From Eledone cirrhosa (taxonomy: Eukaryota), in assembly GCA_964016885.1 (NCBI GenBank), contig OZ024743.1, forward strand, positions 60,512,001 to 60,576,000: a DNA stretch of 64,000 bases, written 5' to 3'. The translations under genes and the position numbers were made by a program. Position 1 is the stretch's first letter. Each line of letters begins with the position of its first letter. The notes beneath the pieces were generated by a model. The model saw only the letters and a list, made by a program, of their open reading frames with translations. It was not told where the DNA came from and made no database searches. Below, in pieces: positions 4,951 through 60,493 of this stretch.

Positions 4951-5185
4951 ATATATATGTATGTATTTATGTATGTATACAGGTATGTATGTATGTATGT
5001 ATGTATGTAATATATGTATGTATGTATTCTTTACCTTCCTCCGTAGACGTTCCATTATACCATGACCATTCCCAGTGAAATATAATATTTATATTCTCTC
5101 TTATTCTTCCTCTCCTTTCCGTCAACACTTCAACAGCATTCATATGTATACATTTTTGGGGACTATCTATCTATCTATCTGTCTA

Positions 5186-7891
5186 TGGCAACGTAGCCAG
5201 CGGGCTGGCGACGAGAACGGCCTTGGACCAGTTCTTCGACGCAAAGCATGAAGGCTGCGTTGTCAGAAGCAAAATAGGTGCTCTGGGAAACGAGGGAGCC
5301 AAAGCTGTTAGCTGGGCCCGAGTGACGAAGGCGAAAAGTGGCAACAAGTCCACGATTCGGTCTTTGAAGGACCAAGACGGACGCGTGATACGTGAGTCGA
5401 AGCAAATGTGCGCGGCCTTTCAGCGACACTTTGCTCAACTGTCTGGGCAGGGCGGCGCGCCGGGAGGGGCAATGGATTTCGGTTCATACCTCGACGGCCT
5501 ACTGCGACTCTCGGACAGCGAGGCGAAGTTCTGCGAAAGGCCGATTTCGGCCGCTGATATAGGGTACGCGCTGAGCCAATGCGGCAAACGCAAATCTCCA
5601 GGTCTCGACGGTCTACCCTACGAATTTTACGTAGCAATGGCGGACTTGTTCTCCGGTCTCCTGGAAGCGGTCAACTGCAACTGGCAGCAGAACGGGAGAT
5701 TTCCCAGTTCTGTGACCAAGGGCGTAATCACGTTAGTTAGAAAGGACGAGAACATGGGGGATGACATAGGAAACTTCCGGCCCATAACTCTGCTCAACAC
5801 AGAGTTACAGATTTTGGCCAAGGTGTTGGCAAAGAGGATGGCGCTTGTCGTCGCAAACCTGGTGGGAGAAGCGCAGACATGCGCAATCCCGACCAGATCC
5901 ATACACGACAACCTCCACCTCATGCGATACATCATAGAGAGGGTAGGGTGTAAACCCGGCTTCGAGGGGCCCTGATCAACTTGGATCAGTCTAAGGCTTT
6001 CGATAGGGTTGACCATTGTTACCTGGATGCTGTGCTCGAGGCGGCAGGCTTCGGACCCGTGTTCAGAGGCTGGATTGCTGCATTGCACAGCAGCAACATC
6101 TGCTCAAGGGTCAAGGTGAACGGCTACCTCGCGGAGCCGTTCCATATCACGCGATCCATCCGACAGGGATGCCCTCTCTCCTCCCTTCTGTACGTACTGA
6201 CTCTCGAGCCACTACTGCAGAAATTGGAGCTATTGCAGGGCAACCCTTTGGAACCGGGACTGCGAAAAGCGGCGTCGGCCTACGCCGACGACATAACAGT
6301 AATGGTGTCGAGCACCTCGCAAATATGGGAGGTCGGCACCATTACTGGAGGAATACGAAAGGTTCACAGGAGCTAAGCTGAACCGGGACAAATCCGTCGG
6401 TTTGCAACTCGGAACGTGGAGAGGCAAACCGATGCCTTCCGATGACGTCGTCGGACGCTGGACGGTAGGACCGGTAAAGATGCTCGGGGTCTGGTTTGGT
6501 CCAGACCTCCAGGTAGAGAAGAACTGGAACGAGGTGACGGCCAAGGTGTTTTGCGCTCACCCAGAAGTGGGCCGAGTGCAAACTCACCTTGAAAGGTCGA
6601 GCGGAGGTGGGGAACACTTTTATAGCGTCTACTACCGCTTGACCGTCGTGCCTTGTCCAGCCAAAACGCTCACCAAAACGGAGCGTGCGCTCTTCCAATT
6701 CCTTTGGAAGAAACGGGCTCCTTTGGTGAGAAGTTACATCTGCTGCCAACACCCTTCAAACGGAGGGCTGGGGATGCCGTGGCTGACGATGCGCAAACAC
6801 GCGCTCAGGCTGCGGCACCTACACATATTCCTCACCGGACAACCGGTGTGGGCCCCGTTCGTGAGGTGAGCCATCCCACGACTCGTCTCGCTGACCGAGC
6901 TGCAGTCCTGGGTCAAACAAAGACCGAGGAAAATGGGCGACTGGCACATTGAATGTGCTCAGGCGCTCACACTCCTCCGACAAATGGACCCGGCGATCAG
7001 TGGAGACTCCACTTCGACATTCTATAGAGGGTTGGTCCGCAGCAATTGCGACGACACGCTCGGAGAAACTCTAGGCGTAGAGGAGGACGAATTGGCCAGT
7101 CTGTTCCGTACGACTTTCCGCCCGGGACCAATGGACAACTTCCAAAAGTCTATGGCCTGGCAGTGCTACCGAGGAGCTCTACCATATCGGGACAAGCTCT
7201 ACAGACACGGGCACCCGGGTAGGGACCCTTCGAAAAAGATCTGTCCGAGATGCGTGCGTGACGAGGAAGCCGTCGCACACGCATTTGTACACTACCTCGG
7301 CGTTACCGACCTGTGGGGCTATGTATAACGACTATTGTCGTTGGTGGGACCAATCCAGTTGATCACCGAGTCCATTGTCATGATCAAACCGGCACCCTCC
7401 TTCAAAAACGAGGGAGAGGCGGTTTTCCTATGTGTTATGGCTATGGTGAAAGAGGTTATATGGTGGACGAGGTTAAAAGGGCTGAGGTCAGACACCTTTC
7501 TCTCCGGTGAGCAACTGATTCGTTTTTTCAAATAACATTTTGGAACAAGAATCAGGATGGAGAGAGAGGTGCTATACCCCAGCAAATTATATAAAAGGTG
7601 GGTGAATGTGGCAAAGATGGCCTGAGTGGCTGGGACTTCTCTCTATATAAGCCTGTAGGTTGAGGAAAAAGAGGAAGAGAGGAATGGAGTACTCACTCTT
7701 GGTGCTCCTGGAGATGAGGGTTGTACATTTTTTCGGGGTGTGTACAACCCCTGTGTAACACCTCCCCACTATTGGGGATTTCAATTGTTATTTGTTATTG
7801 AATTAATAATTTTATTTTCTTATACCTGTATGTAAACTCGCCATTTGTTTTTGTCCCCTTCTTTTGTGCCCTTGTGGCTAATAAATAAATT
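5186..7891 (+). mobile_element. 5'-truncated Tx1/L1-group LINE, frameshifted ORF2 (RT plus C-terminal CCHC)
   Basis: KSPGLDGLPYEFY, FRPITLLN, DQSKAFDRV, RQGCPLS, YADD, CPRC..EEAVAH; aataaa end; (TATC)n on both sides. Confidence 0.92.
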
Positions 7892-7922
7892 TATCTATCT
7901 GTCTATCTATCTATCTATCTAT

Positions 7923-9258
7923 CACAAACTGTCCCTGAAAGGTCGGGCGGAGGTGGCGAACACTTATATAGCGTCCGTCATCTACTACCGCCTGACCGTT
8001 GTGCCTTGCCCAAGGGAAACGCTCGCCAAAATGGAGCGCGCACTCTTCCAATTCCTTTGGAAGAAGCGGGCTCCTATGCTGAGGAGATCCATCTGCTGTC
8101 AACACCCTTCGAAAGGAGGGCTGGGTGCCTAATGATACGTAAACACGCATTAAGACTACGGCACCTTCAGGTATTCCTCTCCAGTCAACCGGTGTGGGCC
8201 CCGTTTGTGAGGCGAGCCTTTCCCAGACTCGTCTCACTCACCGATCTGCAATCCTGGGTCAAGAAAAGACCGAGAAAACTGGGCGCCTGGCACACCGAGT
8301 GTGCCCAGGCGCTCACGGCTCTCTGGCAGGGGGTCCCGGCTGTCAGTGGAGAATCCACCTCGTCATTCTATAGAGGGCTGGTGGTTAGCAGGTACGACGA
8401 CGCCCTCGGAGAAGCCCTAGGCATGGAGGAAGACGAACTGGCCAACCTGTTCGGTAGGACATTCAGCCCGGGACCCATGGATAACTTCCAGAGGTCCCTG
8501 GCCTGGCAATGCTACAGAAGGGCTCTGCCCGTTCGAGAAAGGCTCTACAGACACGGGCGCCCGGGTAGGGACCCCTCGAAAAAGATCTGTCCCAGATGCG
8601 TGTGCGACGAGGAAACCGTTGCACACGCATTGGTACACTGCTCGGGCATTGCCGATCTGTGGGGCTATGTCGAACAACTGCTGTCAAGGGTGGGACCGAT
8701 CCGGTTGACCACCGAGTCTATTGTAACGATCAAGCCGCCTCCCCTCTTCAAAAACGAAGAAGAGGCGGTGTTTCTGTGCGTAATAGCCATGGCAAAAGAG
8801 GTTGTATGGTGGACGCGTCTGAAAGGACTGAGGTCAGACACCTTTCTCTCTGGCCAACAACTGGTCCGTTTCTTCCGATATCATTTCGGAAGAAGGATCA
8901 GGATGGAGAGAGAGGTGCTGCACCCCAGCCGTTTTTATGAAAGTGGCGAGAATGGCCCGTGTGAATGGGCCTTCACTCTACATCAGACTATAGGTGAGGA
9001 AGATGAAAGACCAAGGGAGCACCCCTTCTCTGTGCTCCTGAGGAAAAGGGTTGCACACTTTTTTCGGGGGTGTGTGCGACCCCCCAAGGCGCCTCCTCTC
9101 TATTGAGGACTTTGTCATAAATTTTATTTTTTGTTATATTTTATTTTATTTTTATATATTGTTATTGCCTCCTCCTTATTGAGGACGCCTTGTTTTGTAA
9201 ACTCCCCCCATTGTACTTGTCCCACTTTTGATGCCCTAGTGGCAAATAAAAGAAACAT
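7923..9258 (+). mobile_element. Second, shorter Tx1/L1-group LINE (related subfamily)
   Basis: ORFs 7845-8132 and 8006-9106 align with the 3' half of the upstream copy (GGLG, CPRCVCDEETVAHALVHC); (TATC)n flanks. Confidence 0.92.
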
Positions 9259-9273
9259 ATCTATCTATCTATG

Positions 9274-9340
<67 letters not shown>

Positions 9341-10712: not shown

Positions 10713-11944
10713 TTTGTTTATTGAAAAAAACTAACAAAGATTTAATATAATAGGTCTGTTTGGGAACAGGTTTTGAATTGACCAATAGAAAGGTAGTAAA
10801 TGATCAAGATGGTAAAATAGTAGTAATAGAACTTTAATTTAGGGGTAGAGGAAGGCAGATTTCAGTTTTGAATAGAAAGAGCATGATGAATGAAAAGATT
10901 ATTTTAGGGATGAAAATAGGTCAAGTCGGTAAAAGGTACACGAAAAATTGATGTTATAAAAGAATAATGCCAATAATATCTAAGGAGAATAAAATTTTAC
11001 GATAAATGTGTTAGTGAAAAATATCAATGTTATTTTAAATATAGGGAATTTACATCTATAAAAAGAAAATAAATTAATTAAATTGATAGGTATATTTATA
11101 TTGATAAATTTATATTAATTCATATAGATATGATAAATAAGAGTTAGATGTAATTGAAGAGTGCTGTTAAAAACGAAGGGAAAATAAAAAAATATTAATA
11201 ATAATTATTGGGGGGTGGGGGTTAAATTTATTAGTGAGAAATAACAAATTTATATAGATTATAAGGAACATAGAATCATAACCTGAAATTAAAATAGTTT
11301 ATATGTATACTTAATGGTATAAATTTTAGGAAAAGATAGCTGTAAAAGGGAAATAAAATTATGCAGTTCATTAGTAGTAGAATTATAGGTTAACTAATTA
11401 AAAAAAAGTGTTATTATAATAATTTCTAAAGTGTATATTAATTAGGTTTATAATATTTAAAAGTTCTTCTCAGTTTATGATTACATAATATAATTAATTC
11501 CTGTCGTTTATTTAATAGGATATCCTTAGATTTCATTATTTCAAAAAGTTCCTGGGAACATAATCTACATTCATATCTATTATTTTGATAAGGAGTGGCC
11601 CTTTTGAGCACACTCCAGGTCAGGTCATAATCTATATTCCTCTTTCTATAATTATTAATTATTTCAGCTAAAGATGTTGTATTAGCTAATGCGGCATTTT
11701 TAAAACTGTGTTTGTACCTTTTACCGATTTGAACTATTTTCATCCCTAATATTTTATCTTTTAATTCATCATACTCTTTCCATTCAAAACTGAAATCTGC
11801 CTTCCTCTACCCCTAAATTAAAGTTCTATTACTACTATTTTACCATCTTGACCATTTACTACCTTTCTATTGGTCAATTCAAAACCTGTTCCCAAACAGA
11901 CCTATTATATTAAATCTTTGTTGGTTTTTTTCAATAAACAAATA

Positions 11945-17021: not shown

Positions 17022-17189
17022 AAGATATTAATAAATGGAAACTATATTTATAAAACCATATTTATTCTATTATATATATTTCAAGGGTACCAAAACTTTG
17101 GTACGCCCTCATCAGATTACAAAGCTTGTTTTATAAATATTGACATATCCAGGAATGAGACCTTAACAGTTCAAGTTTTACCTGGATAG

Positions 17190-20170: not shown

Positions 20171-20220
<50 letters not shown>

Positions 20221-20224
<4 letters not shown>

Positions 20225-20661
20225 CAAGTAAATATGTTTTAAAACAATGAGCAGGTTTGAAATTAGAAAATAGAACAGCTTTCACCGTATTTTTTTAGTA
20301 AAGAAATTTTAGTCTGATAATGGGGTTTAGAACCCTCAGATAAATGGAAAAGGATGAGTATTGACGTACATGGGAGTCGAACCCACATATTTGGTTATCC
20401 AGACCGCTGTGCTATCATTTACACCAACACATCACCAATCTCCCACCATTTAAATTAGAAGCTACATTCTTAGCGAGTATAAATGACAAGTAAATATGTT
20501 TTCAAACAATGAGCAGGTTTGAAATTAGAAAATAGAACAGCTTTCACCGTATTTTTTTTAGTAAAGAAATTTTAGTCTGATAATGGGGTTTAGAACTCTC
20601 AGATAAATGGAAAAAGATGAGTATTGACTCCCATGTACGTTAATACTCATCTTTTTCCATT
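20221..20661 (-). mobile_element. 262-nt unit with partial tandem repeat and inverted arm, containing a tRNA-like cloverleaf
   Basis: atgacaagtaaatatg at 20221 and 20483; 20626-20661 is the reverse complement of ~20343-20378; (TA)n at left. Confidence 0.75.
20362..20433 (-). tRNA. tRNA-like sequence (pseudo-tRNA inside a repeat)
   Basis: gatgtgt tg gtgt aaatgata gcac a gcggt ctggata accaa atat gtggg ttcgact cccat gtacgtc a; anticodon stem weak. Confidence 0.6.
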
Positions 20662-20667
20662 GATGGA

Positions 20668-21111
20668 AAATCTGCAGATTCTACACCCTGATTACACCTT
20701 CAGATTTATGCCTGTGATTATTGGGGCACTGGGGTATGTTAGTAACTGCCTCAATACAAACCTTGAGAAGCTAGGTTTCACAGGAACAGAAAGAACATAA
20801 CTAATCAGGAAATTACAAGTACAATCCATTAATGGAACAGTACAAATATGTAAAACATTCCAAAAATGTGCATCTAATAACTGCATATATACATGTACAG
20901 ATACAAAGCATATACACATGCACACATACAACTCAAAACATCCACATCCACACATACAATAACATCCATATCTACACATGCATGCATGCAGCCATGCATA
21001 CATATCTACCGAGTTGATGTTGTGTAAATTCCAATGAGAGAGTCTTATGTCTATGTTAGAAACCGACTCTCTTTCTATTGGTAAACATTTGAGAAATTAT
21101 AGAACCAGAAG
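20668..21111 (+). mobile_element. R4/Dong LINE 3' fragment
   Basis: Near-identical to ~23414-23850; ends in (ACAT)n. Confidence 0.88.
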
Positions 21112-21197
21112 AACATACATACATACATACATACACAGATATATACATATATACATACGCACAGATACACACATACATACACACATACATACATATG

Positions 21198-23850
21198 TGA
21201 GAGAAAAGTGCTTAATAAAAGATTCAGTCGAAAGCAAACATCAGTCTATAGAGATCTGAAGGGAAAAATAATAAGTCTCACTGAGACCCCATCCCAGAAA
21301 GACATAGAATCCTTTTGGAGCAAAATGTGGGGTGAAAAGAAGAATTTCAACCAAGATGTAGTGTGGCTAATAGAAATCCGAAAGAACTATTGCTCCTACA
21401 CTACAACAAAAACATACGAAATAAGTGAGGGTACCCTTGAGACTGTGATAGGAAAACTCTAAGATGAGAAAACACCAGGAAGAGACATGATTGTCGGCTA
21501 CTGGTACAAAAAACTGATATTCTATCGGAGGTATCTTACTGACCTCTACCAACAAGTTCTTAAGGGAGATACACTTATACCAGAATGGTTGACATTAGCA
21601 CAAACATTACTGGTCCCCAAGAACAAAGACACCCACTTGGAAAAAAACTACCGACCCATTACATGCCAGAACCTGATGTATAAGATGTATACAACCTGCC
21701 TGAACCTCCAAGATCACTGTGAAAATAATAACATCACAGATGAACAAGCAGCTGGAAAGAAAGAAGTTTAGGGATGTGCTGAACAACTCCTAATCAACAA
21801 AACTGCGATGTCGGGGCTGCGACAACTTAGGAGGAATATGGCTACAGTATGGCTGGACTACAGGAAAGTTTTCGATTCTGTTCCCCTCTCTTGGATGATA
21901 GAGGCCCTCCAACTTGCTAAAGTCCCAGACATTATTGTCAGAGCCATAGAGAGGCTGTCTTCTTCTTGGGCTACTATCCTAAGGTTAAAGACAGAGAGGG
22001 AGGACTCTATTTTCACTGATAAAATAAAATATTGCAGGAGTATATTTCAGAGGGACAGGCTCTCTGTGATATTATTCATCTTGTCATTAAAGCCCTTGTC
22101 GTTACTGCTAAGAAATGTAAGGGATACATCATTGGCTCACAAGAGGACAGAAATACGAACTTAACCCATAATTTCTTTGTGGACGATCTGAAACTCTATG
22201 CCAAGAACATGGATGGGATGCAAAAAAATCTTGACCGGGTTGCAAGGTTCTCAAAGGATATAGGAATGGAGCTTGGCCAAGATAAATGCTCATAGAGGGG
22301 GAAAACAACAACCCAATCTAGCAACATTGTCATCAATGGCCTAACTGTTTCACCGATATCTGATGAGGACTGCTACATATACCTGGGGATAGATGAGAAC
22401 ATATCCTATAATGGTATCTGTAATAAAGAACGCGTAACCAGGGAATACTACACCTGATTAAGAAAGATCTGGTAATCGGAACTCTCTGCGCCAAACAAAA
22501 CGGTGGCTCACAATGTGTTTGCTGTGCCTGTCCTAACACCAACGTTTGAAATACTTAATTGGACGATAGACGAAATCCGAGCAGTTGATGTTGGAACTCG
22601 AAAAATACTAAACAACACCAGAAACTTCCACATCAAGGGTGACATAGACCGCCTTTACTTGAAACGTAAGCAGGGAGGCAGAGGCCTAACATCAGTCCAG
22701 ACAAAATTTGAATGTCGCATCATATCTCTCCAACAACATCTACGAACCTCGAAGCGTAGGAGCCCGTTTCTCGAGCAAGTCTATCTGTATGAAACAGATA
22801 AAATGATGAGAGTTGGGATGTCGCTCAGCAGTATCGCAGTGAATCCATGGATGAAATACTGCATGCTTATCAGCAAAAAATCATGCACGGATATGTTGCC
22901 AGGAAGCTCCAGAGTGAGAGTAATATAGATAAGGAAAGTAGTCTATCTTGGAACAACAACCGCTATATTGGCTCCCACTTTGAAGAATACGCTTTTGCAA
23001 TCTAAGAACAGGAGATTAACACGAAATACCTGATTCACAAAAGAGATAGGGATGCAGGCAAAACACCTATATGTGATAACAAGTGCAGACATGTCATCGC
23101 GGTACTATCTACCTATGAGGCATGGTGTAGTGGCCAAAACACTGTACAATGCATTTCGTAAAAAAGATAGCCCCGATAATAATTACATTAAAAGCTACAG
23201 CAATGTGGAAGACATCCATGTACATAATATGAAAGAGAACTGGTGGAATGTTCCAGTAAAAACCCCAATAAAATGCAGGCATAACAGACCAGATATTATG
23301 ATATGGGACAGGGAGAAGAAAGCATGCACAGTAGTGGAAATTAGCTGCCCAGCAGATGCCAATATAATATCAAAGATTAGTGAAAAGGAGAATATTTATG
23401 CAGAACTGATGAGAAATCTGCAGATACTCCACCCTGATTACACCTTCAGATTTATGCCTGTGATTATTGGGGCACTGGGGTATGTTAGTAACTGCCTGAA
23501 TATAAATCTTGAGAAGCTAGGCTTCACAGGAACAGAAAGAACACAACTACTTAGGAAATTACAAGTACAATCCATTAATGGAACATTAAAAATATGTAAA
23601 AGATTCCGAAAATGTTGCATCTAATAACTGCACATACACATGTACAGATGCAAAGCATACACATGCACACATACAACTCAAAACATCCACATCCACACAT
23701 AGAATAACATCCATATCTACACATGCATACATACATAGATTACCTAGTTGATGTTGTGTAAATTCCAATGAGAGAGTCTTGTGTCTATGTTAGAAACCGA
23801 CTCTCTCTCTCTATTGGCAAAACTTTGTGAAATTATAAAACCAGAAGAAC
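21198..23850 (+). mobile_element. R4/Dong-clade LINE (RT plus restriction-like endonuclease), decayed
   Basis: NYRPITC, WLDYRKVFDSV, FFVDDLKLY, GGRGL, RHNRPDIMIWD..VVEISCP, PVIIGALG; (ACAT)n flanks. Confidence 0.9.
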
Positions 23851-23930
23851 ATACATACATACATACACACATACATACATACATACATACATACATACAT
23901 ACATACATACATACATACATACATACATAC

Positions 23931-24600
23931 ACCAATCCATTAATGGAACAGTAAAAATATGTAAAATATGCCAAAAATGTTACATCTAATAACTGCATAC
24001 ACACATGTACAGATACAAAGCATATACACATGCACACATACAACTCAAAACATACACATCCACACATACAATAACATCCATATCTACACATGCATGCATA
24101 TATAATCTACCTAGTTGATGCTGTGTAAATTCCAATGGGAGAGCCTTGTGTCTATGTTAGAAACCGACTCTCTCTATTGGGAAAAAATTTGTGAAATTAT
24201 AAAACCAGAGAACATACATACATATATTACTAACTGCCTCAGTTCAACTCTTGAGAAGCTGGGCTTCATAGAATCAGAAAGTGCTCGGCTAGTTAGGCAG
24301 TTGTAAGTACAGTCCATTAATGGAAGTATACAACATTTTAGAAATTCAACATGTAATAGCACATTTATAGATACAGAAATATATGCACGTGTACACATAT
24401 AACTAAAAACATACAGATATATACATACACTAACACCCATACTTGCATACACACGCAAACACATACAAACATACATATGTGCTTACCTGGTTGATTTTCT
24501 CTAAATTCTATTGAAAGAGTCTTGTGTTTATGTTTAAAACCGACTATCTCACTATTGGGGAACATTCATAAATTATTAAATCCAGAAGAACATACATAAA
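23931..24600 (+). mobile_element. Two further R4/Dong 3' fragments in tandem (23931-24212; diverged 24225-24592)
   Basis: Same tccattaatggaa...ccaga end followed by acatacata. Confidence 0.82.
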
Positions 24601-31206: not shown

Positions 31207-31591
31207 AATGATATTAAATAAATGGAAACTATATTTATAAAACCATATTTATTTTATTATATATATTTCAAGGGTAACAAAGATATCATTGGTACGCTTT
31301 CATGAAATAAAATACAAAGTTTGTTTTATAAATAGAGACATACCCATGAAAATCATACCTTATCGGTTGGAAATTCATTATCCAGTGAATTTCCAACCGA
31401 TAAGGTATGTATCCAAACTTTGTATTTTATCTGATGAAAGCGTACCAATGTTATCTTCGTTACCCTTGAAATATATATAATAAAATAAATATGGTTTTAT
31501 AAATATAGTTTCCATTTATTTAATATCATTGAATATTTACTCCACTAAACTGTTGAGTACTCTAAATCAGTTATAAACATTTATGTTTGTC

Positions 31592-31805: not shown

Positions 31806-32602
31806 ATGCAGACGTACACTAGTATGTATACATATACATACATGCACACATATATACATGTACGTATGGGTTTACCGAACATTTATTATAATGCTCGGTT
31901 TGTTTGTAAACAAACAGCCCGAATTATTAGCCGTACAGTGTTCGGCAACCATCGTTGCCCTTTTGTCAACACTTACAAAGGAACGATGAAATAGTTTCTA
32001 GCTTATTAGCTGTCATCAGCATCGTATACCTTCCTGTCAGTCGATTGAACGTTTGAAGGTATATACTTTCCTTGTGCATATTAACAGCTGAGCAGCCTAA
32101 TTTGCATATCGAGTGAGTTAGTCGGCCGGGTGTACCGAAAACAATAAATGGAAAAATGAAATTTTAGTTCTCACTCTTAGTACGGCTGATACTTAAATAT
32201 AAGTATGTATACGTACATACATATATGTATACAGACGTACACTAGTATGTATATATATGCATACATGCACACATATATACATGTACGTATGGGTTTACCG
32301 AACATTTATTATAATGCTCGGTTTGTTTGTAAACAAACAGCTCGAATTATTAGCCGTACAGTGTTCGGCAACCATCGTTGCCCTTTTGTGAATAATTCGG
32401 GCTGTTTGTTTACAAACAAACCGAGCATTATCATAAATGTTCGATAAACCCATACGTACATGTATATATGTGTGCATGTATGTATATATATATATACATA
32501 CTAGTGTACGTCTGTATACATATATGTATGTACGTATACATACTTATATTTAAGTATCAGCCGTACTAAGAGTGAGAAATGAAATTTCATTTTTTCCATT
32601 TA
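31806..32602 (-). mobile_element. Non-coding retrozyme-like element (family C): 423-nt unit, partial tandem repeat, inverted arm
   Basis: cagacgtacactag at 31809 and 32232; 32390-32600 is the reverse complement of ~32145-32351. Confidence 0.85.
31983..32025 (-). ncRNA. Minimal type I hammerhead (stem III mutated)
   Basis: acgatg-CTGATGA-cagct aata agcta-GAAA-ctat-TT-catcgt. Confidence 0.72.
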
Positions 32603-34475: not shown

Positions 34476-36763
34476 AAAGTACGTAGTATAATTAAAGTAC
34501 ATAATATATAAAATAAAATAAAAAAAAAATGAATTATTGTTTTAAAAGGGATTACGATTTGGAAATATATTCTTACAATTATAAGCAATATAACTTTAAA
34601 GCAATATAATTTTTAAAATATTAAAAAATATAATTTTAAAATAAGAATATGTCTAAAAAATTTAGTATAAAAATTTAAATTTTTTTTTATATAATATTTA
34701 ACTCTCAGTATGTTTAACTTAATTTTTATAACCATATGGGAAATTTTCAAAGAAAAAGAAAGAGAAACATTCAAAAGAGAAACTTTCAAAGAAAATATGT
34801 TCCCCTTTTAAGAGCCCTCAATATGTTTATCTAGAAACATTTTCTAGGAAATTTTTTTTTTTTATATTTGAGAGTTTTAAGCAGGCAAATGAAGGAATCT
34901 AATGATTTATCGATAGGTTCAATATATTTAATAGAATTAATTATATATTACATTTTAAATTTTAAATTTCTATTTAAACGTTGAATTCAATGTATGTCTG
35001 CAGCAACTGAAAAGATTGCTCCTTATGTTCAGGGAATTTTTGCTTTTTAATATAAAGAATATTTCCTCTATACAAAGATCACAATTTTCTGAAGAGGAGT
35101 TAAAAGGAGTAGCTTTTGAAATAATATTCCAAAGTAATGAATATTTAACGTTCTTTAATTTAAGGTCCCATAATACGCTAGATAGAGAAGTTGAAGATGT
35201 TTTGTTTAAATGCGTAAAAGAGCTTTTATGGTTATTAAAACGAGATTTAAAAATCTGTGGAAGTAGATCCTACATAATTAAATGAATTTAAATTAGGTTT
35301 TACATTACAATTATATACTATATTTTTAGCTAAGCAATTGTTATTTAACGGACAGTTAGATTTATTTCTACAGTTACATTTATCAAATTGGATATTGCTG
35401 GGGTTATTAGTGGTATTTTGGTTAGGTTTTAAATTTCTATTATTAATTCTATTAATATTCTGCGCTAAATTTTTGGTGGATGAATAAGTTAATTTTATAG
35501 TATGTCTATTAAATATTGAGTAAAATCTATGTGTTCTAAGGAAGCATTTGTCAAGAGCTTTAAAGAATAGTTTAGCAATAGGAGTTTTAATATTTAATGA
35601 GAAAGGAGGAGCGAACCATAATATATTCCTAGTTCTATTTCTTATTTTGTTTTCCGAATTATTGTAAGGTTTTCTATTATAGTTGTTAAAATTGTTAAGA
35701 TTATGGTTAGTTGTTATATTATTATTATCAATGTATTTAATTTTATTTTTATATCCAGCCCTACCTAACGCTTCGTTGTAATAATGTGCTTTATCATCCG
35801 TTTTTTTCTCTGTTTTCTCTGAAAAATCTATAAGTTTAGAAAAATTCCTATATCTTAAACATTAAAAGTCCTTTATTGTATGCATGTATATGTATGTATG
35901 TGTAGGTGTATATATATATATATTTATATGTATATATATGAATATATTCTTTTAAGAATTTATAGATTTTTTAATAATATATAGTTTTAATAATATATAA
36001 ATTTTTAGTTAATATATAGATCTCAATTTTAATGTATAGATCTCAATAATTTAATTGATAATTTTAATTTGATAAACTAAACATTTAATCATATTTATAC
36101 ACTGGTTAAAATTCTCTAGTTATTATTATTTATTTATTTTCTATTCACGCTTATTTACTCTTCTTTACTCATCCAATAAATATTTATTTTTTCACTTCAT
36201 CTTAAAAGTTACGCTAATACAACAACCTATCACTCAGAGCTGTCTCTTTCTCTTTTTCTTTCCCTTTTCTCTTTTTTTATTTCTTCTCTTTCTCTTTCAC
36301 TTTTTCTTGTTTTCTTATTTTCCTCTTAGAGTTTGCTCTTTTTTCTCTTTTTTTTTCTCTTTTTTTTCGCTTTTTTTTCTCTTTCTTTTCTTTCCATTTC
36401 TCCATACTCCAACGGCTTATTTAAAATCTACTATGATTTAAACATATCCGACACTAATTTGCATAATAGAATAAATAAATTTAATAACCCCACTATCCGG
36501 GAGCTTCCAACAGAAATGGTCGCATTCTTTAAGGGTATGTCAATATTTATTTATAAAACTGATCTATATTATATTTTATCGAATGAAAGCACACCATAAT
36601 TTAACTTGGTGTCCTTAAAATATGTATAATGAAATAAATATGGTTTTATAAATATAGTTTCCATTTGTTAATATATCGTATTTTTACTCCAATAATTTGT
36701 TGAGTGCTTTATATCAGTTATAAACATATTTGCTTGTTGTATCCCAACAATTTAAATAGAATT

Positions 36764-40360: not shown

Positions 40361-40548
40361 GTAGCACACATGTAGGTTATATCCGTAGTAGAGCACTCAG
40401 TCCATGGGACGAGTTTAGTAGATCTAGTTCCACAATAGATAGTTCACCATTGCTGAGAACAATTAAACCGAGCTGATGATCCGCATAAGGTGAAACAATT
40501 GTTTTCGGTAATGGTGAACTAACTGTTGTGGAACTACTTCTCTCACTA
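40358..40548. mobile_element. Fold-back PLE-type terminus (family F)
   Basis: Minus arm ~40360-40464 mirrors the + tail; homologous to 60451-60590. Confidence 0.8.
40467..40509 (+). ncRNA. Minimal type I hammerhead ribozyme
   Basis: accgag-CTGATGA-tccgcataaggt-GAAA-caattg-TT-ttcggt. Confidence 0.8.
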
Positions 40549-43365: not shown

Positions 43366-43931
43366 TTCGTTTCTGAACTTGCTGAATTTGTTTAGCAAGA
43401 TTCTTTATCTGAAATCGTGTGTTGAAACCGATATTGTTATACTTTGGGAGGGTCATGTTGCCAATAAGAAACACACGCACCAGTTGCTTTCACTTCAATT
43501 TATTATAATAAATTTATAATAAATTGATAAATTTATAAATTTCTGGTTGGTTGGTTGGTTCCACAACCAGATAGTTGTTTATATATTGTCATAGTTCTCT
43601 CGTCACACACTCTGTGACCTCTTCAGACACCCGGATGTGGCGCATGCGCAGACTGAACACACAACACACACACAGAAACAAAATGGCGTAGGACAGAACA
43701 AAGGAGAGGCACAGAAACAAAGAAAGGAATCCCCAGTCACTGAAGAGGTCACAGAGTGTGTGACGAAAGAACTATGACAATATATAAACAACTATCTGGT
43801 TGTGGAACCAACCAACCAACCAGAAATTTATAAATTTATGAATTTATTATAAATTTATTATAATAAATTGAAGTGAAAGCAACTGGTGCGTGTGTTTCTT
43901 ATTGGCAACATGACCCTCCCAAAGTATAACA

Positions 43932-44171: not shown

Positions 44172-45977
44172 ATAACTTTGATAACTTTGATAACTTTGAT
44201 AGGTTTCGGCCAGTATTGGCCCAGGCCATGTTTAACTTAATAGCACCACCTAGCAAAGTCTTACAAATCAGTGTTTGGGCACCATGGCCCACTCGAGCAG
44301 AGAGTTATTGTTTACGGAGGCATATCCGGGTGTAGGAGGCTTATCCGGGATTTCTTGAAGGAATTTATCCGAAGACTTCTTGAAATTGATGGGGTCTGTC
44401 TCTGCTTTGATGTGTTTTGGTGTAATATTAAAGAGTGCAGGACCAATTGAGGTGAAATAATTGTGCCGAATTGTTATGTGATGCGAGTGTGATTTTTGTC
44501 GTGGGCGGATAGCACGGGGCCCAAGCCTTGGGTGTACACTAAGCATCATTTGGGCTAAGCTGATGGAATATTTTCCACATCATACAGATAATTTAGCGCT
44601 CACGGCGACGTTGAAGAGAATAAAGTTTGCGCTTTTCTAATCGACCCCAATAGTCAAGGCCTGTCATGCCAACTATCTTTTTTGTAATTGACCTTTGGGG
44701 TGCTTCAACTTTCATGATACTTTGTTTCGTGTGGGGTGACCACAGTGGACAACAGTATTCAAGGTGGGGTCGGGCAAATGTGGAGAAGAGAAGGACAACA
44801 GTGTGGATATCTCGACTGGAAAGGTCTGAGAATCCAGGAACACATTCTGCGGGCCATATAAACTTTGCTGTTTATATGGGTGGCCCAGCTTATATTATTG
44901 TCCACAATTACTCCCAGGTCTCTGATGTTATTGGCGGCCACTAGAGTTTCAGCCGAAGGAAGAGAGTATGGTAGTGGATTAGTTCAAATTTATCCTCATT
45001 CAACAGCATATTATTCATCTCTGCCCATTGGATAACAGCCAGTAGGTCTGACTGAAGGCAAGTCCGGTCACCCACCTCATTGATGACCCTTTGGAGCTTG
45101 GAATCATCTGCGAAGATTCTGATGTTGCTGTGTTTGATGATGTCAGTAATGTCATTAATGTAGATGATGAAAAGAAGTGGACCGAACACAGTGCCTTGTG
45201 GGCGCCACTGCTGACTTTGGCAGGGCTTGATTTTACTCATTCGACTACAACATGCTGGGTTCTGCCTGTCAGGAAACATTTGATCCACTGTAGTAACCTT
45301 CCAGAGATACCAACATTGGATAGTTTTTTCAGTAGAATCTTATAATCAACCATGTCGAAGGCCTTGATGAAATCAAGGTAGATTACATCAGTGTTGGAGC
45401 CCTCTCTCAAAGCGCTCAAAACATCGTCAAAGTGATGCAGGAGCTGCATTAGGTAGTCCCTTCCATTACGGAACCCATGTTGGTTGGAGTTCAGCAGGCC
45501 GTTGCTTTCAAGAAAGTGGGTTATTCGTGATCTCACTACCCTCTCAAATACTTTGATAATATGAGAGGTGAGTAAGATGGGAGGGTAGTTCATTGCAAGG
45601 GACTTATTTCCCTTTTTGAAGACTGGGACAACGGACTGGGATAGAAAGTTTTCAGGAATATAGCCAGTATCCAGTGAGTTCCTCCACAGATTAGCAAGAG
45701 GAGTTGCAAGTTGGTGTCGACACACCTTCAGGACAAAAGTAGGGAACCTGTCAGGGCCTACTGCTGAATTGTGTTTAATTTCGTTTATTGCCGCTAAGAC
45801 ATCAGGGGCACCACACGTTAAGTCTGATATAGTGTGTTGGGGGTTAACATCACTGATACGGCCCAGATCGGCCATATCAGAATTGCTGAAAACAGAACAG
45901 TATTGTTTCTGCAGTATCTCGCCCATGGTTTTGGCATTGTCCTGGAGTGTGCCATTTTCATCAACTAGGGGGCCAAC
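44172..45977 (-). mobile_element. CR1-group LINE, 5'-truncated, frameshifted RT
   Basis: GPDRFP, NQHGFR, IYLDFIKAFDMVD, PQGTVFGPLLF, FADDSKL, IRDLGVI; 3' tail (tatcaaagt)x3. Confidence 0.9.
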
Positions 45978-46033
45978 ATATATATAAATATATATACATA
46001 TATATATATATAAATACATATATATACAAAATA

Positions 46034-46115
<82 letters not shown>

Positions 46116-46118
<3 letters not shown>

Positions 46119-46558
46119 GATATTAAGAAATGGAAACTATATTTATAAAACCATATTTATTTCATTATACATAATTCAAGGACACCAAGTTAAATTATGG
46201 TGTGCTTTCATCAGATAAAATATAATATAGAGCAGTTTTTAAATAAATATTGACGTACCCTTAGAATGCAACCATTACTGTTGGAAGCTCCGGGATAGCT
46301 TCCAACAGTAATGGTTGCATTCTAAGGGTATGTCAATATTTATTTATAAAACTGCTCTATATTATATTTTATTCGATGAAAGCGCACCATAATTTAACTT
46401 GGTGTCCTTGAATTATGTATAATGAAATAAATATGGTTTTATAAATATAGTTTCCATTTGTTAATATCGTATTTTTACTCCAAATATTTGTTGAGTGCTT
46501 TATATCAGTTATAAAAATATTTGCTTATTGTATCCCAACAATTTAAATATAAATTTTA
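46116..46558. mobile_element. Fold-back PLE terminus (family A) with decayed HHRs
   Basis: Arms meet at ttggaagct ccgggat agcttccaa (~46293); minus 46160-46220 has CTGATGA..GAAT. Confidence 0.85.
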
Positions 46559-46569
46559 CATATATATAT

Positions 46570-47600
46570 ATATATATAGTTTTGCGAGGTATTTTGATAT
46601 GAAATCGTGTGTCGAAACAAATATTGTTATACTTGGGGAGGGTCATATTTGTGTAATAATATTGACAGAATTAATAACAGAACACACTCAGTGTTTGGTT
46701 GGTTTTCGCTGCTGTGTCTTTTATATCGGTTAATTTAATTTATTCGGTGCTCAATGTTACCATTGACTGACCAACTGTCAAAAATACAGTTATAATATAG
46801 AAACAAACACATATATATATAGTCTAACAAAGTTCTTTCTTTGCACATCTGCAACATCGCCAGTGGTGCTATTATGTTTCCTCCCGTTGTATTTTATGCC
46901 TATTTTATGCCATCTTTATTTAGTCTGTTTATTTATTTGTTTGTTTGTTTTGTTTTTTTTTTTGTCTTCTCTGCGCATGGGTTTGCGTGTGTGTATAGTG
47001 TTTTGTTTGATGCGTGTTCGTGTTTGGGTGACTGTGTATTGGTTATTGTATTCTATCTTAGTTTACTAGTGTGTGTTTATATGTGTTTGTTGTTATTGTG
47101 CTTGTGTATGTATTTATTTATTTATTTATACTTCTCTTAGGTCAGTGTTGTTTGTTTGGGTGTTGTTGTTATTCCATTCATTTTTTCTGTTTAGCCTTGG
47201 CCTTCTAAGTTCTATTTCGCTGGCCTCTCTGATTTGCCTATCTGCTGGGTCATTTCTATGTTTAGATATTATTCTAATTTCTATGTTGTCTATGTTACCG
47301 TCGTGTTGTTGTCTGGCATGTTCGTATAGTACTGAACCGTTTCTTCGTCCTTTTAGTTTCCCCCAGTGTTGTCTATCCTTTCACCTATGCTACGAGCTGT
47401 CTCGCCTATGTATGTTGTTGTCATATTTCTGCAAGTACACTCTGTACATCTCATGCTATAGACTACGTTTCTAGTTATATAGTTTATCCGGGGGTTTACT
47501 TTACATATAATACATTTCCTATTAGTACAGTGGGTTTTCTTAAAAGGGTAGGTTTTGCTAATCAGGGATTTTATGGTGGTTCCTGACTTTTCTACCACCG
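46570..47600 (-). mobile_element. PLE remnant (GIY-YIG, UTR, decayed HHR at 46826-46867)
   Basis: CTNRKCIIC..NVVYSMRCTEC..YIGETARSIGERI; CTGGCGA-tgttgca gatg tgcaaa-GAAA-gaac-TT. Confidence 0.75.
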
Positions 47601-47810
47601 TGATATTATGGGGTGACCTCAGCTGGGAGCAGCAGTCCAGGCGGCTGAGGACAAATGTCCTCCATAGTGTCAATATGGTCTCTCGGTCTATTGTCCGGAA
47701 AATCTTCAAGATCTGGTCCGCTAGTCGCCTGCATATTGTCGCCACACTCATAATGTGTGAAGAAAAAGATGTGTCATCGCTCATGTCTACCCCCATGTCT
47801 CGTATCGATT
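47600..47810 (-). mobile_element. CR1-group LINE fragment
   Basis: IRDMGVDMSDDTSFSSHI..LWRTFVLSRLDCCSQLRSPH. Confidence 0.8.
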
Positions 47811-47855
47811 TCGACATGGGAATTTCGAGATCCCTCCTGCTTGGGTGTAGTATTG

Positions 47856-47912
<57 letters not shown>

Positions 47913-48064
47913 AGAACTGCAGTTCTGTTTACAAGCCAACACAAGAGCAAGTATGATGGGCTCATTCTACTGACATGGCTTAAAAGAGGGTGTTTGTATA
48001 ATTGCAAACGAATCGGATATTATTATTATTATTCGAAAAGCTCAGATTAGATTCATTGTATTCA

Positions 48065-50164: not shown

Positions 50165-52215
50165 CTAGGAGACCGAATGAATCTCCGCTACAGAGTTAAG
50201 AACAAAGTAAATAAATACAATACAGAAGTAATAGGAACAAATAAATACATACACGCAAACAGATACGTACATACACAAGCATACGCAAAACCTTACCATA
50301 GGTATACAAAACCACGCACATATAAATATGTGTATGTGTGTATGCTTGTGTACAAATAAATAAATAATTATATAAACGTATATAAGTAAATAAATACGTA
50401 TATAACAAGCGCACACACATACCTACAAATCAATACATGAAGGTTCGGAGACGTAAGTCAACTAAAACAAGAAGTACACATATACACACACCCACCATAC
50501 GTACGAACCTGCATACTCCCGCAGACGCAAAACTCCCATATACACATAACCAAGCCCTAAATACCAGAATATGTAAAAATTATACGCCAAAACAGTCAAA
50601 TATACGTACGAGAAGGTATACATACCTTCACAAAACATACGGGTAATATATACTTACCTATGCAAAAAGTAAAGTAATAAACAAAACATATACTTAGCTC
50701 CCACATCAAGACGTAAATATCCACGTATAGATCGTGCTATCCGTTAGGGTATAACGTAGGGCTGTAATACAGGAAAGTTTTGTGCAATTTATGTTTACAA
50801 GCCGAAATTGCCTCAGATTTTTTGTTTAAGATGTGGTCTGTGGCGTAGAGTATTTCCAGGGCCTCAGCGGCGCAGAGGTCACATGGTCTTTTATTTCCGT
50901 TATACGATCTAGCCCTAGCTAGGATCTCCCATTGTAACTTATATTGGGTGTGGTTGTCTTTTAGGCTCCAGATATAAGCTGAAAGTGACGTCATATTCCT
51001 TCTTAGAGGGTAACGAAAAGAATGGGTATGCATGTAAAGACGCTGCTTGAAACTATTGGCGGTTAACCCTATGTAGGCCCTACGGGACGTGGGTGTTACA
51101 ACCTTACATTTGTAGACAATGTTACTAGAGAGGCATTTCCCGGATAGGGGACAATCAGCCCGATTCCTACAATTACAGTTAGTACTAACTACAGGGTTGC
51201 ACGTGTTCCTACGGCTAGGTATTTTAGCTAAATTTGAAGCTGTGATGTTATGTGCAAGGTTAGGAGTCGTTGAGTAAGAAATTTTAATAGTGTTTCTATT
51301 AAAAATTTTACTATATTTATGTGTAGGGGGAAAATGCTTCGTAATAAGTGAAAGAAAGATCTTAGCTAATGGTGTGGCCACCTCCATATTATATGGTGGG
51401 TTAAACCAACAAATGCGACGGGATCTATTTCTTCTAGGTCTATTCTCGTACTCTGTATATGCTACCTTATCCACCCACTTCGAGCAAGAGCTTCATTGTA
51501 ATAAGTGGAATGGTCGTTGAAAATGCGCTCGTTGGTGGAAAGACGGGAAAGCCTCAACGAAACGTGTTTTACCATGTTATTGGTTATACTGGCAGGATGG
51601 TTGGAATGCTTACTTATGTAATTAAGCGTATCATTCGGCTTTCTATACGGGTAATGCAACCCATTCAATAAATTGAGGGTAACGTCGAGGTAATTAACGA
51701 CCGAGAGATTGGCCTCAACCTGTATAGAGAGGTTGAAGCCTTTAAAGAAGGCTGTGAGTTATTTTCTGAATCTGTCGCAAGCACGAGGTCCGCACTTAGT
51801 CATGGTCAAAAGGCCATCGTCACGGTACAAACCACCGCCCGCGTTAGGGAATTCGTCCTTGATAGAGAAAAGAAGGAAAAGGCCAATAAGATCAGTAACT
51901 TCCGCAGAGTCACTGGCGCCCATACTCACGTCGAATGGGGTACTATTGGATTTTTTAATCCAAATAGAATCGTCGAAATTAATCACCGACTTTCGGGCAT
52001 TAAGGATGACATCAACTTCGAAATCCTTAACCACTGTGAGTGTTTTAGCGAAATTGATAGCTCTAAGGAGAAGTGGTAAAGTGATGGAGGAGTAGTAATT
52101 GTTGATGTCGAATTGGATAAAACGGCAATGTTCCTTGTTACATATGCCGTTGAACCAATCAATCACCGCGAAAGAATTGTTCCACAGTGCGAGAGGGGCC
52201 AAATTTCTAATTTCA
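50165..52215 (-). mobile_element. PLE with RT, linker and C-terminal GIY-YIG (5'-truncated, frameshifted)
   Basis: [73 protein letters not shown]. Confidence 0.93.
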
Positions 52216-52234
52216 TATATATATATATATATAT

Positions 52235-53059
<825 letters not shown>

Positions 53060-53363: not shown

Positions 53364-55630
<2,267 letters not shown>

Positions 55631-57354: not shown

Positions 57355-57792
57355 TAAGTGTAAGTATGTATGTATACGCACATATATATATATGTATACA
57401 GACGTACAGTACTATGTATATATATATACATACATGCACACATATATATATGTACGTATGGGTTTACCGAACATTTATTACAATGTTCAGTTTGTTTGTA
57501 AACAAACAGCCCGAATTACGCCGCACAGTGTTCAGGCAACCATCGTCGCCTTTTTGTTAAACACTGACACAGGAACGATGTACTAGTTTCAAGCTTATTA
57601 GCTATCGTCAGCATCGTATACCTTCCTGTCAGATGACTAAACGTCTGAAAGTATATACTTTCCCTATGCATATTAATGGCTGAGCATATATGTAAACATA
57701 TATGTATGTGCGTATACATACATACTTACACTTAAGTATCAGCCGTACTAAGAGTGAGAAATGAAATTTCGTTTCATTCTTTTCCATCTTCG

Positions 57793-60448: not shown

Positions 60449-60493
60449 ATACGAGCTGAGGATCCGCTAAGGTGAAACAATTGTTCTCGGTAT
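60449..60493 (+). ncRNA. Minimal type I hammerhead ribozyme (family F; element extends to ~60590)
   Basis: gag-CTGAGGA-tccgctaaggt-GAAA-caattg-TT-ctc. Confidence 0.78.

Follow-up and report, generated by a model that had tools for sequence, protein, structure and literature searches.

An abundant non-coding repeat of Eledone cirrhosa with an internal tRNA-like module, probable Penelope-type insertions and 5' truncations gathered just 3' of T-loop A58

The element and its surroundings in the window

The window, the 64,000-nt stretch of Eledone cirrhosa DNA that was analyzed, holds between 20221 and 20661 a two-armed insertion of a non-coding repeat with a tRNA-like module. We number the element along the 260-nt consensus of its family, family A, on the tRNA-sense strand (u-numbering), and use "arm" for one unbroken stretch of element on one strand. 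The target is a (TA)15 microsatellite at 20193-20222, preceded by a CA run, which adjoins the 3' end of the element. A full family A unit of 262 nt occupies 20221-20482 on the minus strand (u1 = 20482), and its 3' end at 20221 belongs to the "long" class (u239-265) of the two described below. A partial upstream tandem unit follows at 20483-20628, also on the minus strand (u117/119-260), and is 97% identical to the full unit. Its 5' end lies 1 to 16 nt past A58 of the T-loop, where 5' ends are concentrated family-wide, after one earlier read-through of A58. An inverted second arm on the plus strand (20626-20661, u104-139) starts at G57/A58/C59 and meets the main arm with 3 nt of microhomology; its 3' part is displaced by flanking LINE-like DNA. 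Because it begins at u104-106, this arm carries about 15 nt of tRNA interior, a point absent from the preliminary description of the locus. That description had reported the 262-nt unit, the partial tandem and the inverted arm beside (TA)n, and all of its coordinates hold. It had also placed the 5' end of the main arm near the tRNA 3' end; this agrees with our alignment, in which the arm ends at u117-119, 1-3 nt before the discriminator base.

The tRNA-like module spans 20362-20433 on the minus strand (u50-120), with an A-box-like D arm, a B-box-like T arm and no 3' CCA. The fold, first proposed from the letters alone, is matched by Rfam RF00005 with 34.8 bits, above the gathering score of 29, and the Rfam alignment places both an A and a B box in family A. 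A58 of the T-loop (GUUCGA) is at 20377 (minus strand; u105) and is a candidate m1A site, with 5' ends across the family gathering just 3' of it; the discriminator is at 20362 (u120). The module does not have the marks of a functional tRNA: ARAGORN calls no tRNA in the window, and the anticodon loop is unstable between families, with 3 of 7 positions differing between family A and the related family B. Its D arm may resemble that of tRNA-Gln. As for a donor tRNA, none of the 16 best tRNA-like loci in an Rfam search of the genome is close to the module.

Ten of those 16 matches belong to one repeat family of ~1.6 kb (e.g. G000:C1:420764510-420767582), which contains a near-perfect internal tRNA scoring 53-72 bits, mostly with the anticodon GGC. 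Its copies share a fixed start, where a terminal hairpin follows TA, and at the opposite end they contain an internal inverted repeat of ~170 nt; pairing of leader with trailer is predicted here too. The family resembles a non-autonomous DNA or rolling-circle element rather than a PLE-type one. Elsewhere in the genome, at G000:C1:243.65-243.68 Mb, tRNA-Thr-like genes form clusters with 7 and 5 ARAGORN calls within 3 kb.

On either side of the module, the element contributes two strands to a predicted extension of the acceptor stem. The purine-rich leader strand (20434-20452, minus; u31-49) is partly decayed in this copy. The opposite side, 20341-20362 (minus), consists of a 3-nt bulge formed by the discriminator and the next two bases (u120-122) and a pyrimidine-rich trailer strand (u123-141) that includes a T4-T6 run. 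Two short hairpins are predicted farther along the trailer at 20296-20335 (minus), in family A as well as family B, and may serve as protein-recognition elements.

A scan for CTGANGA..GAAA finds no hammerhead core in the element, as had been noted before, and 16 motif matches elsewhere in the window. Hammerhead-like core motifs occur at 17079-17115, 31431-31471, 31995-32019, 40473-40495, 43740-43768, 52743-52770, 55391-55435, 57587-57611 and 60456-60477. Among the Rfam matches listed, 55391-55435 alone is assigned to a hammerhead, at 31.7 bits and below the gathering score. Several hammerhead-motif repeat families flank many of the examined loci of our element in the same (TA)n sites. Decayed PLE-like ORF remnants are found at 11438-11806, 35247-35861, 50737-51492 and 51759-52361, in which a cysteine linker can be made out by eye, as can a GIY-YIG-like motif; we take them to be Neptune-like, and Pfam gives no match for any of the four. 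LINE-like DNA is also common. Stacked LINE-like fragments with ACAT tails fill 20661-21195 and 21196-24600, and the first of these, the plus-strand flank just outside the element, shares 89% identity with 23407-23929, where a decayed LINE-like copy ends. Two further decayed LINE-like copies with RT-like ORF pieces lie at 5079-9289 and 44268-47928, with a weak RVT_1 match at 5079-5972.

The repeat family, its predicted fold and its insertions

The earlier reading was thought to rest on one copy, which is not the case: the genome holds thousands of dispersed copies of the family. Exact family A 18-mers have 1,983 (upstream) and 5,777 (downstream) matches in the 3.0-Gb genome, with none for the reversed-pattern controls, and a first-look genome search returned 2,719 candidate copies. 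Three subfamilies, A, C (with an 11-nt duplication) and E (~271 nt), all retain A58. In subfamily E (8 loci) the top of the acceptor stem is remodeled and the D and T arms are kept. Letters similar to subfamily E are also present in contigs of a second organism, to which the family may therefore extend. Family B has a unit of ~288 nt and 244 + 492 exact 18-mer matches; its T-loop carries T58 in 129 of 130 read-through units, and its B box is altered. Median identity to the consensus is 92.5% in family A and 91.9% in family B. The two families share the T-stem, a CATG/GTAC palindrome, the discriminator, the bulge and the acceptor 3' strand, and the differences close to the hotspot are at T-loop positions 58-59. 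In family B, a TA-rich spacer lies between units, and a TATA-like run precedes the tRNA by ~35 nt. A covariance-model search of 100 of 181 sequences detected no further diverged family.

In the predicted consensus fold, leader u31-49 and trailer u123-141 form a 19-bp helix that extends the acceptor stem past the 3-nt bulge. The corresponding helix of family B is predicted at 21 bp, with two extra bases per strand. Four G-U pairs occur in the A helix and three in the B helix, along with one C-C and no A-C. The z-score for folding is -3.8 in a family A copy and -5.2 in a family B copy, compared to -1.3 in the decayed copy of the window; when the tRNA module is folded by itself there is no signal (z = +0.4), and the complete cloverleaf lies 2.4 kcal/mol above the minimum-energy fold. 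The T-arm has an energy of -5.4 kcal/mol in both families. In family A it presents GUUCGA in a 7-nt loop with pair probabilities of 0.79-0.89, an arrangement absent in family B. A 10-row A/B alignment, in which a misplaced gap leaves the mid-helix unpaired, contains no two-sided base-pair changes, and its pairing does not exceed that of column shuffles.

The insertions were examined in position-ordered samples, i.e. the first listed matches to the downstream 18-mer, comprising 78 family A and 80 family B loci. Arms on both strands are found at 50/78 and 49/80 of these, respectively. Among 100 family A anchors, 88 reach a TA/CA run, seven enter another unit and five have no run within 140 nt. 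This bears out the proposal that copies sit in (TA)n with inversions, which affect about two thirds of loci. The 3' ends fall into two classes ~40 nt apart, u197-228 and u239-265, and 39 of 41 two-armed loci combine one short with one long 3' end (p = 4e-10; 14/14 position-ordered and 25/27 other loci). Families A and B follow the same two-site 3' pattern and use the same TA targets. Head-to-tail arms extend up to ~4.2 units (1,081 nt), which points to templates longer than one unit or circular. No poly(A) tails were seen in the junctions examined, and any target-site duplication would be masked inside (TA)n.

These features correspond to what has been described for PLEs. In the published account of a purified PLE protein (PMC11167929), the enzyme cuts and extends both target strands, and reverse transcription has two internal start sites, which set a tail of 30-40 nt. 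In PMC8557442, copies that are in tandem or inverted and biased to (TA)n are presented as general to PLEs. From the two-site tail, the two arms and the (TA)n bias, we infer mobilization by a PLE enzyme acting on tRNA-sense RNA, and on this comparative ground PLE-type mobilization of the element is very probable. A (TA)n-targeting PLE protein with RT and GIY-YIG domains would cut both target strands and prime at two internal sites, producing two arms from templates that may exceed one unit or be circular. No autonomous partner was found when the four PLE-like ORF remnants of the window were compared by tblastn with the window and 180 loci, and a comparison of PLE-like 3' UTRs over the same set recovered only nested copies of the element itself. 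The preliminary description had suggested a tRNA-processed, PLE-mobilized non-autonomous class. The class survives as a multi-copy, ribozyme-less repeat with an internal tRNA-like module and PLE-type insertions; processing by RNase Z does not, as discussed below.

The 5'-truncation hotspot and its possible causes

More than half of the sampled family A arms that reach the tRNA end at their 5' side in a narrow interval just 3' of A58. In the position-ordered samples, 45 of 80 family A arms that reach A58+16 stop within A58+1 to +16, compared to 4 of 66 in family B (p = 4e-11). Counted as one arm per locus, the values are 39/63 and 3/60. The truncation rate in this interval is 0.035 per nt versus 0.004-0.006 downstream, roughly a tenfold increase, and it affects subfamilies A (26/43) and C (19/37) alike. 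The adjacent bin, +17 to +35, shows no difference between families (11/91 for A and 8/74 for B). Hand counts in similarity-ranked samples, from which the query locus and any locus duplicated or sampled twice were excluded, give 16/27 and 15/26 versus 3/28. Genome-wide, the ratio of upstream to downstream 18-mers is 0.34 (1983/5777) for A and 0.50 (244/492) for B before correction, and ~0.33-0.43 and 0.85 after a rough correction for retention. Arms that have passed A58 once also stop there at 7/24 later passages, in a sample biased to long arms. Of 20 internal deletions in family A, three have a 3' edge that falls at u104-106 (p = 0.002, post hoc). Calibration of the junction offset on the hammerhead sister families gave no usable value, with ends masked by subfamily divergence.

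Two observations from sequence collections outside the assembly are left out of the counts above. Logan contig depth falls across u105-120, in data that are mixed with related families and carry no copy number, and one contig of the second organism, a single case, ends at u105.

We favor, just on the positive side of even, a picture in which an abundant non-coding repeat, likely copied by a PLE enzyme, breaks mostly just 3' of A58, likely because reverse transcription stalls at m1A58. As the specific cause of the hotspot, m1A58 stands at about even, ahead of each rival. TRMT6/61A would methylate the GUUCGA T-loop and the RT would stop near C59; a few bases may then be trimmed before the end is joined at the CATG/GTAC palindrome or at a TA run. 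The enzyme is reported to act on GUUCRA in 7-nt loops on a 5-bp stem outside tRNA too (bioRxiv 10.1101/202747), and m1A is described as truncating reverse transcription imprecisely (bioRxiv 10.1101/202747; PMC10275265). The mode of the hotspot, u110-111, is 4-5 nt 3' of the cDNA end expected for m1A58 (C59). Since T-arm energy is equal and the palindrome is shared in the two families, neither explains why the hotspot is confined to one of them. Misincorporation at A58 gives a mixed picture. Five substitutions occur in a set of 33 full units, 8/148 when loci are pooled (p = 0.005, A58 ranking 11th among 71 A sites) and 6/108 in another set (p = 0.06), but the signal is not replicated in the position-ordered, upstream-anchored set (2/71, both A>G).

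The strongest rival holds that A58 is only a marker, and that the RT meets a structural or protein roadblock, such as the tRNA elbow or a bound tRNA-processing protein, or that the families use different RT partners. The A58/T58 comparison is indeed a single evolutionary contrast between lineages, and family B also has a different base at position 59, a different anticodon loop and another predicted fold. It has, moreover, a mild excess of 5' ends of its own between the D-loop and the anticodon arm (20/58 vs 4/29, p = 0.046), and the family A mode at u110-111 falls in the 3' strand of the T-stem. Against such an obstacle, the T-stem is identical in sequence and energy in A and B, and stops are not enriched on entry into the much stronger 19-bp extension (11/91 vs 8/74). 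Family B may be copied by another RT, although the shared two-site 3' pattern and TA targets speak against different partners. We regard this group of explanations as unlikely, with perhaps one chance in a handful of being right.

Slightly less probable again is a cut in the T-loop by a host nuclease, of a tRF-3-like kind that needs a normal T-loop, in which case the hotspot would be the true 5' end of the RNA. Host processing would then take the place of the hammerhead at another site, and ligated circles or uncut multimers would yield the tandems. A cut of this type would yield an identical junction window, likewise lost in family B, would suit the unreplicated misincorporation as well as a hard stop does, and could supply the circles or long templates that perfect arrays of up to 4.2 units need. 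Five position-ordered junctions at u102-105, however, reach A58 or beyond (partly through microhomology), and the deletion edges at u104-106 suggest skipping by the RT on an intact template. In the account of PMC11167929, furthermore, the purified PLE mainly used unprocessed RNA, and hammerhead cleavage was not needed.

The preliminary description proposed that RNase Z, cutting after the discriminator, sets the RNA's 5' end in place of hammerhead cleavage, and expected junctions to pile up at that base. A pile-up near the tRNA 3' end exists, but it lies inside the tRNA: 20 of 45 hotspot ends are at u110-111, none is at u120 and a single one is at u121, the base after the discriminator. With microhomology fully allowed for, 46 of 48 junctions in u100-125 are at or before u119, upstream of the cut site. 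The copies at these junctions thus carry tRNA-internal bases, and their template cannot be an RNase Z product. The main arm in the window does end at u117-119, and the discriminator and the next two bases are kept in a 3-nt bulge in both A and B. Family B, however, has the same bulge, discriminator and acceptor 3' strand and yet no hotspot (4/66), and subfamily E has an altered top of the acceptor stem. Mammalian tRNase Z is reported to be suppressed by leaders longer than 8 nt or paired with the trailer (PMC9141469), which also argues against such a cut and makes it more likely that the leader/trailer helix shields the module than that it presents it. The helix would keep both RNase P and RNase Z away from internal tRNA modules and thereby let long templates persist. 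We are confident that the hotspot is not due to RNase Z, and the proposal as a whole is highly improbable.

Least tenable of all is the reading as an ordinary SINE headed by a tRNA, or as a tRNA pseudogene that was duplicated locally a single time: the A and B boxes fit a SINE, as do the 5' ends that cluster mildly around the 5' boundary of the tRNA, but 37 of 60 upstream-anchored arms reaching u55 extend past u14, which upholds the earlier view that the fold is internal rather than a 5' head, and the 3' ends, with no poly(A) tail in the junctions examined, join (TA)n at two classes of site, with inversions at about two thirds of loci. The local duplication is ruled out by the thousands of dispersed copies.

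The module nevertheless likely has a promoter role, judging from its sequence. The mild 5'-end cluster at u42-55 may mark Pol III starts. It comprises 12 of 60 ends in the position-ordered set, compared to 8-16% in neighboring bins, is indistinguishable between A (3/23) and B (4/36), and is strong both in the subfamily of the window copy (5/7 main arms) and in data that are pooled and biased. In many cases the end takes in 1-6 bases upstream of the tRNA, so a Pol III start fits better than an RNase P cut. The T5-T6 run located 10 nt past the tRNA should terminate most Pol III transcripts. Given this run, and given that family B spread although its B box is broken, the long templates may not be products of Pol III. 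If m1A58 is what stalls the RT, promoter strength and copying success would trade off, A58 being also part of the B box.

Comparison with known systems

In literature searches, no title or abstract listed describes a tRNA-bearing non-autonomous PLE or a genomic truncation linked to m1A58; Repbase, Dfam or the repeat library of PMC13282606 may hold the family. That library is described as containing 893 unclassified SINE families in its recently active set. Tentatively, and at somewhat below even, we would describe these repeats as Pol III-type "Penelope SINEs" that are helix-locked against RNase P and RNase Z and methylated at A58, with over half of copying aborted, and family B as an escape lineage without a B box. 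If so, the genomic junctions are a fossil record of an RNA modification that restricts a retrotransposon. Should m1A underlie the hotspot, retrotransposition is limited by an enzyme with which the host modifies its tRNAs, the mark of that enzyme can be read from genome sequence alone, and there is a hint as to why tRNA-derived elements may be selected away from tRNA likeness. The sites of TRMT6/61A at m1A58 and GUUCRA are known, in the sources consulted, from in vitro reverse transcription of cellular RNA; here a candidate mark is read from genomic junctions.

Comparable systems include the metazoan non-LTR retrozymes (PMC7229834; bioRxiv 10.64898/2026.07.22.740005), which are also short non-coding tandem units and are proposed there to be non-autonomous derivatives of PLEs. 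Retrozymes carry a hammerhead, whereas the present element has none and contains instead an internal tRNA mimic with an A58-tied hotspot. The hammerhead-motif repeats of this genome share their (TA)n sites with the family. Among PLEs themselves, Poseidon PAc (PMC11167929), Neptune, Naiad and Chlamys derivatives such as MRC1 (PMC8557442) are described with the same partial tandems and inverted, 5'-truncated arm, and their insertions also have a 30-40-nt two-start tail and a (TA)n bias. Naiads and most Chlamys elements likewise lack hammerheads, according to PMC8557442. Our element differs in having no ORF, and a tRNA module goes unmentioned in the descriptions of those PLEs that were consulted. 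The two-ended, two-armed junctions of the family constitute a large natural data set on the mechanism of PLE insertion. Tailless retropseudogenes, by comparison, are given as 3'-truncated L1 products (PMC5322556), unlike this element.

The nearest tRNA-derived tandem elements are Sm-alpha and Sj-alpha of Schistosoma (PMC2770079, PMC6765202), reported as Pol III-type sequences derived from tRNA-Gln-TTG and often in tandem. As in the present case, the promoter lies elsewhere than at the 5' end of their processed RNA. Sm-alpha carries a hammerhead, and neither a two-armed PLE insertion nor a leader/trailer helix is among the features described for it in those reports. The TRIMp3 elements Helenus, Ajax and Cassandra (Kojima 2024, PMC10886601) embody the same idea, with the Pol III promoter of a small-RNA gene inside a terminally redundant non-autonomous element. 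They differ in their LTRs, PBS, PPT, 4-5-bp target duplications and dependence on Gypsy/Copia, as reported there, whereas the repeats described here leave PLE scars. Non-autonomous parasites of PLEs are thereby extended from hammerhead retrozymes to tRNA-bearing elements, in parallel to the relationships of SINEs with LINEs and of TRIMp3 with LTR elements.
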